From assembly GCF_003334335.1 (NCBI RefSeq), contig NZ_QOWQ01000016.1: a stretch of DNA of 64,000 bases. One strand, given 5' to 3'. Each line of letters opens with the position of its first letter. Position 1 is the stretch's first letter. This stretch comes from Escherichia coli. GTDB taxonomy: Bacteria > Pseudomonadota > Gammaproteobacteria > Enterobacterales > Enterobacteriaceae. Below the pieces are notes generated by a model, which saw only the letters and a program-made list of their open reading frames with translations, searched no databases and was not told the DNA's origin. Below are positions 26,224 through 29,101 of the stretch, piece after piece. The position numbers were made by a program, and so were the translations under genes.

Positions 26224-29101
26224 ATGGGCATCAAACAACACAATGGGAATACCAAAGCAGATCGTCTCGCTGAATTAAAAATCCGTTCGCCCTCAATTCA
26301 ACTGATAAAATTTGGCGCTATTGGTTTGAATGCAATTATCTTTTCCCCCCTGCTGATAGCTGCTGATAGCTGCTGATACAGGAAGTCAATATGGCACCAA
26401 TATTACTATTAATGATGGTGACAGAATTACAGGAGATACCGCCGATCCATCAGGAAACCTCTATGGTGTAATGACCCCAGCAGGAAACACGCCTGGCAAT
26501 ATCAACCTGGGTAATGATGTCACCGTCAATGTCAACGACGCCTCTGGATATGCAAAAGGAATCATTATTCAGGGCAAAAACAGCTCCCTGACAGCTAACC
26601 GACTCACAGTAGATGTTGTTGGTCAAACCTCTGCCATCGGCATTAACTTAATTGGTGACTATACCCATGCTGACTTAGGCACAGGCAGCACCATTAAGAG
26701 TAACGATGACGGCATCATTATTGGGCATAGCTCAACACTAACAGCCACTCAATTCACCATTGAAAACTCGAACGGTATAGGCCTAACCATCAATGACTAT
26801 GGCACCAGTGTCGATCTTGGAAGCGGAAGTAAAATCACGACCGATGGAAGTACAGGTGTTTATATCGGTGGTCTCAACGGCAATAACGCCAATGGTGCTG
26901 CGCGTTTTACGGCTACAGACCTGACAATCGATGTTCAGGGCTACAGCGCCATGGGGATAAACGTACAGAAAAACTCTGTTGTCGATCTCGGAACAAACAG
27001 TACCATTAAAACCAATGGCGATAATGCTCACGGCCTCTGGAGCTTTGGCCAGGTTAGCGCGAATGCACTCACTGTTGATGTAACTGGAGCCGCGGCCAAT
27101 GGCGTCGAAGTTCGTGGTGGTACAACCACTATCGGTGCAGATAGCCATATTTCTTCCGCGCAGGGCGGTGGCCTCGTCACCAGTGGTTCAGACGCGATAA
27201 TCAATTTTACTGGCACGGCAGCGCAACGAAACAGCATCTTTTCCGGCGGTTCTTATGGTGCCTCGGCCCAGACGGCAACGGCTGTTGTCAACATGCAAAA
27301 TACCGATATTACAGTTGATCGTAATGGCAGTCTGGCGCTGGGTTTGTGGGCTCTCAGCGGCGGTAGAATAACCGGAGACAGTTTGGCTATCACCGGCGCG
27401 GCAGGAGCCAGGGGAATTTATGCCATGACCAACAGCCAGATCGACCTCACGAGCGATCTGGTCATTGATATGAGTACACCCGACCAGATGGCCATCGCAA
27501 CGCAACATGACGATGGTTATGCCGCCAGCCGCATCAACGCCTCGGGTCGTATGCTTATCAACGGTAGCGTTCTTTCCAAAGGTGGGCTAATCAATCTGGA
27601 TATGCACCCTGGGTCGGTTTGGACAGGTTCCTCCCTCAGCGATAATGTCAATGGCGGAAAACTGGACGTTGCAATGAATAACAGCGTCTGGAACGTAACA
27701 AGTAATTCTAATCTCGACACGCTGGCGCTGAGCCATTCAACTGTCGATTTTGCCAGCCACGGGTCAACTGCCGGCACATTTGCCACATTAAACGTAGAGA
27801 ACCTGAGCGGTAACAGTACCTTTATTATGCGTGCTGATGTTGTTGGCGAGGGTAATGGCGTTAATAATAAAGGGGATTTATTGAATATCAGCGGGAGTAG
27901 TGCTGGTAATCACGTATTGGCTATCCGCAACCAGGGCAGCGAGGCCACAACGGGAAATGAAGTTCTGACAGTGGTAAAAACCACTGACGGCGCGGCCTCG
28001 TTCAGCGCGTCTTCTCAGGTTGAGTTGGGGGGATATCTGTACGATGTGCGTAAAAATGGCACTAACTGGGAGCTTTACGCTTCCGGGACAGTTCCGGAAC
28101 CGACTCCTAATCCTGAACCCACACCAGCTCCCGCTCAGCCTCCCATAGTCAACCCCGATCCTACGCCTGAACCCGCTCCCACGCCTAAACCCACCACGAC
28201 CGCAGATGCTGGCGGCAATTATCTCAATGTCGGTTACTTATTGAACTATGTTGAAAACCGTACGCTGATGCAACGGATGGGTGACCTGCGAAATCAGAGT
28301 AAAGACGGTAATATCTGGTTGCGCAGTTATGGGGGAAGCCTGGACTCCTTTGCCAGTGGCAAACTGAGCGGCTTTGACATGGGTTACAGCGGTATCCAGT
28401 TTGGTGGGGATAAACGTCTCTCTGATGTAATGCCGTTGTATGTCGGTCTGTATATTGGCTCAACACATGCATCGCCGGACTATAGCGGAGGCGACGGTAC
28501 CGCACGTTCAGACTACATGGGAATGTACGCCAGTTACATGGCACAAAACGGTTTTTACAGCGATCTCGTTATAAAAGCATCGCGCCAGAAAAATAGTTTC
28601 CACATACTGGACAGTCAGAACAACGGCGTTAACGCCAACGGCACTGCGAATGGAATGAGCATCTCCCTGGAAGCCGGGCAGAGGTTCAACCTGTCCCCTA
28701 CTGGTTATGGGTTCTATATAGAGCCGCAAACCCAGCTTACATACAGCCACCAGAATGAGATGACTATGAAGGCGAGTAATGGCCTCAATATACATCTGAA
28801 TCACTACGAATCGCTGCTGGGGCGTGCCAGCATGATACTGGGGTATGACATCACCGCAGGCAACAGCCAGCTGAATGTCTATGTGAAGACTGGCGCTATC
28901 CGCGAGTTTTCAGGGGATACCGAATATCTGTTGAACAACTCCCGGGAGAAGTACAGTTTCAAAGGTAATGGCTGGAATAACGGCGTGGGAGTCAGTGCAC
29001 AGTATAACAAACAGCACACATTCTATCTCGAAGCGGATTACACGCAGGGTAACCTCTTTGATCAGAAGCAAGTCAACGGAGGATATCGCTTCAGCTTTTA
29101 A
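26224..29101 (+). pseudogene. ycgV: Autotransporter adhesin YcgV, reading frame broken by a 10-bp tandem duplication in the signal-peptide region
   Basis: ATG at 26224 encodes MGIKQHNGNTKADRLAELKIRSPSIQLIKFGAIGLNAIIFSPLLIAADSC then TGA at 26374-26376; the remaining ORF (to 29101, passenger domain, Pro-rich linker and C-terminal beta-barrel ending ...GGYRFSF) continues in the +1 frame. Removing one copy of the 10-mer tgctgatagc restores a single 955-codon frame. Confidence 0.8.
26351..26378 (+). repeat. Tandem repeat of the 10-mer tgctgatagc (2.8 copies) inside ycgV
   Basis: tgctgatagc at 26351-26360 and 26361-26370, followed by partial tgctgata at 26371-26378. Confidence 0.9.

Follow-up and report, generated by a model that had tools for sequence, protein, structure and literature searches.

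The analyzed window, a stretch of 64,000 nucleotides of E. coli DNA, contains ycgV, which is annotated in the RefSeq E. coli genomes with identical DNA as an autotransporter outer membrane beta-barrel domain-containing protein. The features of the locus are summarized in Table 1. In the window, the start and the body of the gene lie in different frames: the ATG opens 50 codons that end at a TGA (26374–26376), and the main ORF (26471–29101) follows in another frame, with (26471 − 26224) mod 3 = 1. The 10-bp repeat is present in three copies here, where K-12 and almost every other strain have two, and the third copy places a +10 frameshift in the region coding for the signal peptide. The same allele in strain EC416 was called “frameshifted” by PGAP, and K-12 carries an intact 2868-nt CDS, for which the SignalP score of the protein is just 0.47 (PMC13101318). 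About 5 of 4,113 records have the three-copy state, and 5 of the 4,113, among the matches listed, aligned to the entire window at ≥99.8% identity. Since ycgV is out of frame upstream in the window genome, the segment described below is probably not made there within a secreted protein. The frameshift had gone unremarked in a sequence-only reading of this DNA. Unlike the 18-bp array further downstream, the 10-bp repeat shifts the frame; in an unlikely reading, it could act, along with a C-run in the signal-peptide region, as a slow on/off switch of ycgV.

Table 1. Coordinates of the ycgV features in the window.
Feature	Position	Strand	Evidence
ycgV, frameshifted, probable pseudogene	26224..29101	+	ATG 26224 and main ORF 26471-29101 in different frames
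10-bp tandem repeat CTGCTGATAG, three copies	26350..26379	+	Tandem Repeats Finder; alignment with 13 other alleles
Pertactin-type passenger C-terminal end (autochaperone region)	27713..28078	+	Pfam PF03212, E=1.2e-37, ORF residues 415-536
Pro/Thr-rich spacer TVPEPTPNPEPTPAPAQPPIVNPDPTPEPAPTPKPTT	28088..28198	+	Translation; AlphaFold2, without regular secondary structure
Copy-number-variable 18-bp array, 2 units here: CCCGATCCTACGCCTGAA (PDPTPE), CCCGCTCCCACGCCTAAA (PAPTPK)	28154..28189	+	Tandem Repeats Finder
Alpha-helical linker (…ADAGGNYLNVGYLLNYVENRTLMQRMGDLR…)	28196..28279	+	AlphaFold2 helices at 200-227
Outer-membrane beta-barrel (translocator), C-terminal	28310..29098	+	Pfam PF03797, E=1.2e-37

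The encoded protein has a beta-helical passenger, an alpha-helical linker ahead of the barrel, and a 12-stranded C-terminal barrel, as type Va autotransporters do; in the window copy, the N-terminal signal peptide expected of that class is not in the frame of the main ORF. A Pro/Thr-rich spacer joins the passenger and beta domains, as the sequence-only reading had proposed: Pfam Pertactin lies immediately 5′ of it and PF03797 approximately 40 residues after it, and PDB alignments, AlphaFold2 (AF2), and a fold search concur. The passenger end aligned to P.69 pertactin (1DAB/2IOU, phmmer E ~ 1e-11) up to a point just before the spacer and matched 1DAB in Foldseek. The phmmer alignments to translocators, EspP among them, began between ~20 residues (Hbp) and ~55 residues (BrkA) after the spacer start. 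The barrel matched BrkA (3QQ2) with a phmmer E value of 2.6e-24 and reached Foldseek TM(target) scores of 0.85–0.90 to EspP and BrkA, with NalP, Hbp, and AIDA-I also matched.

We used AF2 to model a 500-aa query that covered no more of the passenger than its final ~160 residues (overall pLDDT 86.9, pTM 0.80), and the predicted order of elements was a beta-helix, an unstructured stretch of low confidence, a helix, and the barrel. Strands of the passenger end extended to residue 161 of the query, and those of the barrel occupied 238–499 with pLDDT mostly >90. Within the spacer, the block-mean pLDDT was 54–69 for model residues 161–190 and 80 for 191–200. The helix that follows matched the pre-cleavage structures of EspP in Foldseek and is predicted to occupy the lumen of the barrel. 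Its …TLMQRMGDLR motif was kept across homologues and lines up with the helix of EspP and BrkA, and an alpha-linker motif of autotransporters has been described (PMC3419190). Calling the Pro-rich linker typical of autotransporters was thus too strong, as the conserved linker of this class is the alpha-helix after the spacer, and the Pro-rich piece is an optional extra; it measures 10–39 residues in close relatives and is missing from many distant homologues.

AIDA-I and Ag43 are cleaved near the junction between passenger and barrel. The related pertactin is also cleaved near this junction (PMC8931430), so the Pro-rich segment might be considered the cleavage point of the passenger or a protease-accessible hinge for its release. 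However, known cleavage sites are found not in Pro-rich repeats but either in the barrel-enclosed alpha-helix (EspP) or at particular residues of the junction, no conserved cleavage motif was seen across the variable units, and many homologues have no such segment at all. We regard a processing site here as very unlikely.

The 37-residue peptide quoted by the earlier reading is encoded exactly at the spacer coordinates, in the frame of the main ORF, and its Pro/Thr-rich character is confirmed; the span originally given (28085–28200) starts one Gly codon earlier and runs two bases into the Thr codon that follows. Proline makes up 16 of the 37 residues (43%) versus 8 of 839 (0.95%) in the remaining ORF, so that 16 of the 24 prolines of the ORF fall within the spacer, together with seven threonines. 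When the protein was shuffled 2,000 times, the proline count of a 37-residue window never exceeded 8, compared with the 16 observed, and the binomial tail probability corrected for the number of windows was ~6e-13. The prolines mostly occupy alternate positions (..P.P.P.P.P.P.P..PP...P.P.P.P.P.P.P..). The DNA had been described as near-repetitive and rich in CC(T/A); the repetition stands, with an 18-bp period, but the codon usage is CC(C/T)-rich (CCC 7, CCT 6, CCG 2, CCA 1). Weak Pfam matches over the spacer (Trypan_PARP, E = 0.0026; TonB_N, E = 0.81) were judged compositional, and we dropped homology to these families. We also dismissed the ORFs in other frames or on the other strand, which are just 27 and 42 aa long over the spacer, as by-products of its CCN/NGG composition. 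An Rfam scan of 25400–29300 on both strands gave no family at the gathering score, and thus no RNA element explains the repeat.

Tandem Repeats Finder placed the 18-bp period at 28154–28192, with 2.2 copies and 85% matches. The 5′ half of the spacer (PEPTPN-PEPTPA) uses different codons and showed no variation in length. The earlier reading had predicted in-frame length variation at these repeats, and a comparison of linker length among the ycgV alleles of other strains bore this out: across 3,943 complete E. coli records, we found linkers of 32, 38, 44, and 50 residues, corresponding to 1–4 copies of the 18-bp unit encoding PDPTPE. Two units, as in the window, occurred in ~2,640 records (~67%), three in ~1,295 (~33%), four in six, and one in a single record; these counts were estimated by combining BLAST identity bands with a sample taken at even spacing, so that rare classes may have escaped notice. 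The aligned spans were 383, 401, 419, and 437 nt for the 401-nt query from the window, and the corresponding YcgV proteins are 949, 955, 961, and 967 aa long. We read 20 alleles base by base, and all indels seen preserved the frame and kept to the register of the repeat. A synthetic five-unit query returned no record at ≥99%, and there is therefore no evidence for a fifth class. The flanks of a synthetic zero-unit query aligned as two perfect pieces in three-unit genomes, which makes a zero-unit allele indistinguishable by this search.

Length changes have recurred. A single PDPTPE unit separates the members of three allele pairs, each on a different background of units: PDPTPN-PTPTPK with or without PDPTPE, PDPTPA-PAPTPK with or without PDPTPE, and an O169-type allele with three versus four units. 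Two comparisons involve genes that are otherwise the same: the remaining 2,946 aligned columns show 0 differences between LD91-1 (three units) and strain 1500 (two units), and likewise between 06_3235 (three units) and 7_15_5C (one unit). A neighbor-joining tree of the 20 alleles, which recombination may distort, required at least five length changes. Adjacent units in three- and four-unit alleles were identical at 15/15 or 18/18 bases, including the same synonymous codons. Because the changes occurred on different allele backgrounds, twice on otherwise identical genes, they point to a small coding minisatellite altered by replication slippage or unequal recombination. For strain 1500, whose two-unit allele carries one further base change beyond a simple one-unit deletion of its neighbor's allele, import of a K-12-type patch by recombination is an alternative to slippage.

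We weighed whether the length classes could come from misassembled low-complexity DNA. Single-base indels in a few records (06_3235, SC423, and a C6/C7 run) could be homopolymer errors, but the two main 18-bp classes are common to roughly 1,300 and 2,600 independent complete genomes, and the differences are always multiples of 18 with linked flanking substitutions. We therefore rejected an artefact, the least probable of the explanations considered here. A contingency locus, in which the repeats switch expression or alter length at high frequency within a clone, was rejected as well and is scarcely more probable. Tandem DNA repeats inside a surface-protein gene, together with the two recent length changes on otherwise identical genes, would fit such a locus. 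Yet an 18-bp unit preserves the frame and cannot turn ycgV off, the copies are few (1–4) and imperfect, and the two major classes hold steady in thousands of genomes. With the 401-nt query across the linker, 2,235 records reached ≥99% identity to the window, and the six four-unit records were identical to one another. The changes are occasional events at the level of the population, as opposed to rapid phase variation, and are probably near neutral.

The linker is also the most variable 150-column window of ycgV, with 17 segregating sites versus an average of ~8 and a nucleotide diversity of 0.034 versus 0.015 in the rest of the gene. The substitutions are located at the non-Pro positions of the spacer, and the prolines themselves are conserved. 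Along with a genome scan that called ycgV positively selected (PMC9110714) and the variation of R1 and R2 repeat numbers among pertactin alleles (PMC8931430, PMC3279416), this pattern could reflect diversifying selection on the number of repeats, of the kind suggested for the repeat regions of pertactin, which would change an exposed epitope or adjust the reach of the adhesin relative to O-antigen or capsule. Against this, >99% of records fall in two classes that largely track allele lineages, and relaxed constraint on a disordered spacer accounts for the same diversity. Moreover, ycgV is often lost to frameshifts or deletions and is missing from ~27% of genomes, which argues against strong selection on it. 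We consider adaptive variation unlikely, and slightly more so its stronger form, an “adjustable stalk” whose PDPTPE number is functionally tuned, with longer spacers either carrying the short YcgV beta-helix past O-antigen or capsule or altering an exposed epitope, and with adaptive gains and losses.

Taken together, we favor, with a probability of roughly 0.8, a passive tether: an extended Pro-rich spacer between the passenger and the helix and barrel, whose 3′ half is a minisatellite variable by slippage. From its composition and the low AF2 confidence, the spacer would be extended and non-globular, with a PxPxPx pattern that is probably polyproline-II-like. On one side of it is the pertactin-type end of the passenger beta-helix, and on the other are the conserved alpha-helix and the 12-stranded barrel of this classical (type Va) autotransporter. 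After secretion, it would tether the adhesin passenger to the barrel some nanometers off the outer-membrane surface, and this role is likely to be passive. The 3′ half consists of 18-bp coding units, each specifying PDPTPE or a close variant, and the near identity of neighboring units at the DNA level would allow slippage or unequal recombination to gain or lose whole units, yielding in-frame alleles with 1–4 of them. The location of the spacer, its composition and repeats, the allele classes, and their recurrence are observations, whereas slippage, the extended shape, and the tethering role are inferred. Spacer length may have no phenotypic effect.

What this means is modest. What the locus adds, with little import beyond bookkeeping, is a small and clean example of a coding minisatellite in an E. 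coli adhesin gene of the core genome, and the four allele classes may offer a minor typing marker. In a search of the literature on ycgV with proline or linker, we found no paper describing the spacer or its polymorphism, and the evolution-experiment papers that mention ycgV mutations give no positions in their main text. The spacer tolerates 18 residues of length change, which is useful for employing the C-terminal fragment of YcgV as a surface-display anchor. Supplied with an exogenous signal peptide, a truncated YcgV anchor that begins at residue 622, which is residue 2 of the Pro-rich core, was retained as one of the functional scaffolds for surface display (PMC13101318). For annotation, the probable frameshifted ycgV pseudogene in the window genome is the more consequential point.

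Length variation of the spacer is an ordinary feature of this class of autotransporter proteins. Its closest analogue is region 2 (R2) of Bordetella pertactin, a (PQP)n stretch at the C terminus of the P.69 passenger. Like the YcgV spacer, R2 directly follows the end of a pertactin-type beta-helix, ahead of the alpha-helix and barrel, and it is rich in proline and either unresolved or loosely structured. In the alignment, the pertactin crystal chain extends as far as the residue preceding the YcgV spacer. The YcgV spacer likewise lies between such a beta-helix end and the alpha-linker and differs in frame in copy number among natural alleles, and pertactin alleles also differ in repeat number, with changes that are slow and occur over population time scales (PMC8931430, PMC3279416, PMC3966384). 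The R2 unit is a 9-bp PQP versus an 18-bp PxPTPx in YcgV, whose units (PDPTPE, PAPTPK, and similar) contain no PQP run; the repeats themselves share no sequence homology, and their likeness is positional and compositional only. Pertactin is also an expressed vaccine antigen under immune pressure, whereas YcgV is an E. coli adhesin that is cryptic and often inactivated.

The (EP)n/(KP)n region of TonB and the EP repeats of procyclin resemble the spacer in their alternating X-Pro residues, expected to form an extended polyproline-II-like rod. TonB spans the periplasm, whereas the YcgV spacer should lie outside the cell, and the Pfam likeness is compositional, not homologous. Within E. coli, YcgV has been placed in Group 4, the self-associating autotransporter adhesins of AIDA-I/Ag43 type (PMC9289746); like them, it combines a passenger built as a beta-helix with an alpha-linker and a barrel of 12 strands. 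The transport unit of AIDA-I (4MEE) was also a Foldseek match to the YcgV fold, and set against this type, YcgV is distinguished by a junction domain that matches Pfam Pertactin.

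The Pro-rich spacer of ycgV varies in length in frame among E. coli strains, as the sequence-only reading had anticipated. The peptide it quoted, TVPEPTPNPEPTPAPAQPPIVNPDPTPEPAPTPKPTT (37 residues), matched the translation of its coding stretch exactly, and the interval assigned to it, 28085-28200, covers this peptide plus one codon before it and two bases after it. Its proline content is far from chance, at 16 of 37 residues versus 8 of 839 in the remaining ORF and a maximum of 8 per 37-residue window in 2,000 protein shuffles. Two runs, separated by AQPPIVN, have proline at every other position. 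The DNA is 48% C and should be called CC(C/T)-rich, not cc(t/a)-rich, with proline encoded by CCC (7), CCT (6), CCG (2), and CCA (1). The bias toward CCC and CCT (13/16) is strong, and these are not among the preferred proline codons of E. coli. Since the spacer contains a single Pro-Pro pair (QPPI), little EF-P-dependent stalling is expected.

Features of ycgV in the window and spacer alleles read in E. coli strains
Feature	Location or strains	Detail
C run	26344-26349	C6, in TTTTCCCCCCTG
10-bp repeat CTGCTGATAG	26350-26379	three tandem copies; signal-peptide coding region
Stop in frame from ATG 26224	26374-26376	after 50 codons
Long ORF	26471-29101	+ strand
Pertactin domain	ends three residues before spacer	Pfam PF03212, E=1.2e-37
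Spacer	28088-28198	+ strand, frame of long ORF
18-bp period	28154-28192	Tandem Repeats Finder
Autotransporter beta-domain	starts ~40 residues after spacer	Pfam PF03797, E=1.2e-37
1 unit	7_15_5C	PDPTPE
2 units	window, K-12	PDPTPE-PAPTPK
2 units	MRSN346647, GN04592	PDPTPN-PTPTPK
2 units	7CC, E200086, EC581	PDPTPA-PAPTPK
3 units	O157:H7, LD91-1	PDPTPE-PDPTPN-PTPTPK
3 units	NCTC8623	PDPTPE-PDPTPT-PTPTPK
3 units	strain 5283	PDPTPE-PDPTPA-PAPTPK
4 units	F9792	PDPTPE-PDPTPE-PDPTPT-PTPTPK

Thousands of RefSeq E. coli chromosomes contain a stretch identical to 27950-28350, annotated [quoted passage not shown] and flanked, as in the window, by ychF and dhaR. The spacer lies between folded domains, joining passenger and translocator as originally described. 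Besides the Pfam domains, alignments to PDB sequences extend over the P.69 pertactin passenger up to the residue just before the spacer, and over the BrkA, EspP, and Hbp translocator domains from the helix after it. In an AlphaFold2 model covering the C-terminal 500 residues (40-sequence alignment; mean pLDDT 86.9, pTM 0.80), beta-helix rungs extend to model residue 161, and helices at 200-227 precede a beta-barrel. The spacer is predicted to lack regular structure: residues 162-198 have none in the model, with block-mean pLDDT of 69, 54, and 61 over 161-190 and up to 80 for 191-200. By Foldseek, the barrel has matches in EspP, BrkA, Hbp, NalP, and AIDA-I, and the passenger end has one in pertactin. 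The helix following the spacer is the conserved “alpha-linker” of autotransporters (PMC3419190), and the Pro-rich piece is additional to it.

Searching 5,426 complete E. coli genomes with the 401-nt query spanning the linker (27950-28350) gave 3,943 matching records from 3,942 genomes. Sixty of these records, sampled at even spacing, had aligned spans of 401 nt (39), 419 nt (18), 437 nt (1), and 383 nt (1), with one truncated. We obtained class sizes by re-querying the genomes with each length variant. The 3-unit query matched 980 + 315 records at ≥95% identity and the window query 2,235 + 413, giving roughly 1,295 records (33%) for the longer form and 2,640 (67%) for the window's 2-unit form. 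The 437-nt form was matched at 100% by six records, O169:H41 strains among them, and the 383-nt form by strain 7_15_5C only; a synthetic 5-unit query matched no record among the complete genomes at ≥99%. Annotated YcgV proteins are 949, 955, 961, and 967 aa long. The spacer tolerates 18 residues of length change. The linker region had no match at all in 1,484 genomes. The ycgV 5′ end was matched in 4,112 genomes, so that about 170 carry 3′-truncated copies. Eight matching places were on plasmid records, and some genomes had up to 3 places.

Reading 20 alleles base by base placed all length differences in the 3′ half of the spacer, as whole multiples of the 18-bp unit CCCGATCCTACGCCTGAA (PDPTPE) or close variants. 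The indels are recurrent and keep the register of the repeat. In three pairs with differing downstream backgrounds, the alleles are separated by exactly one leading PDPTPE unit. Neighboring units in the longer alleles share 15-18 identical bases and the same synonymous codon choices, which identifies them as recent duplications, not convergent composition. The 5′ half (PEPTPN-PEPTPA) encodes the same amino acids by different codons and is constant in length, as a mechanism needing DNA identity would predict. Units are probably gained and lost by slipped-strand mispairing or unequal recombination among near-identical copies.

With gapped columns excluded, 2,946 aligned columns show no difference between LD91-1 (3 units) and strain 1500 (2 units), and the same is true of 06_3235 (3 units) and 7_15_5C (1 unit). 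A neighbor-joining tree of 2,810 non-linker columns, which recombination could distort, required at least five length changes among the 20 alleles. These changes are recurrent but occasional: the two common classes account for >99% of records, and ≥99% identity to the window across the 401-nt query is shared by 2,235. A phase-variation locus is ruled out, because the changes are occasional and unable to switch ycgV off. With indels set aside, no other stretch of ycgV varies as much as the spacer: nucleotide diversity is 0.034 versus 0.015 for the remaining gene, and the spacer's 150-column window has 17 segregating sites versus an average of about 8. Prolines are kept while the residues between them change, a pattern that fits constraint on proline periodicity only. 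The length differences themselves are probably close to neutral. Genome scans have reported ycgV as positively selected (PMC9110714).

The window's own linker probably belongs to a pseudogene. Two CTGCTGATAG copies are present in K-12 and in nearly every other strain; the third copy here (+10) shifts the frame from ATG 26224 into an early stop, and the long ORF with the linker lies in a different frame, without the signal peptide. EC416 carries the same allele, and its ycgV is annotated “frameshifted” (PGAP). Five records among the matches listed, of 4,113, have three copies: EC416, PEC1009, PD4, LR-29-1, and EEC_W5.

Other lesions were also observed. At least eight complete genomes (e.g. C11, C10, and WP2-S18-ESBL-07) have C7 for C6 upstream of the repeat, and their ycgV likewise carries a frameshift annotation; either true homopolymer slippage or an error of long-read sequencing could explain this. 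In strain 52F4 (locus L014, 4156-4158, equivalent to window 28106), a ~2.2 kb deletion runs from within the linker, after …CCGGAACCGACTC, into dhaR; ycgV loses its helix and barrel, and dhaR its C-terminal part. A C4 to C3 change inside the linker of 06_3235 (L010) and a 1-bp insertion in the 27950-28350 equivalent of SC423 (L009) render ycgV “frameshifted” there, and AHM8C212RI and AHM8C160RI have 418-nt spans. These single-base indels and 418-nt spans may be sequencing errors.

We propose that the spacer would act as an extended, fairly stiff tether keeping the passenger off the barrel and membrane surface. A YcgV anchor lacking residues 1-621, with an exogenous signal peptide, was kept among working truncated surface-display scaffolds (PMC13101318). 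By our check of the numbering, its first residue is the second one of the Pro-rich core, and the design is consistent with this role. YcgV has been grouped with the AIDA-I/Ag43 biofilm adhesins (PMC9289746). Our literature search found no paper describing the spacer or its polymorphism; it is a newly documented example of a variable Pro-rich spacer at a domain junction. Elements of this kind are ordinary and well understood, and the general interest is low.

Calling such linkers typical of autotransporters was an overstatement. We retrieved 117 homologues with the C-terminal 500 residues of YcgV. Citrobacter-like homologues have a 29-residue Pro-rich spacer in the same place, Morganella-like ones have spacers of 10 and 28 residues (PPEPEKPKPP vs PPPVVPDPDPEPEPKPKPEPEPEKPKPP), and one homologue has 39 residues of PEPxPx. 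In many more distant homologues, the W-E-L-Y passenger end leads directly into the alpha-linker without a Pro-rich stretch, so the spacer is an optional, lineage-specific insert; judging from these sequences, it would not belong to the secretion mechanism. Its closest known counterpart is (PQP)n, region 2 of the pertactin of Bordetella; the 13 prn alleles carry different numbers of this repeat, and the number changes slowly (PMC8931430, PMC3279416, PMC3966384). Both occupy the equivalent position after the Pfam Pertactin domain, but the two repeats have distinct motifs and unit sizes and lack homology. By this analogy, the YcgV spacer would work like region 2 without being the same element.
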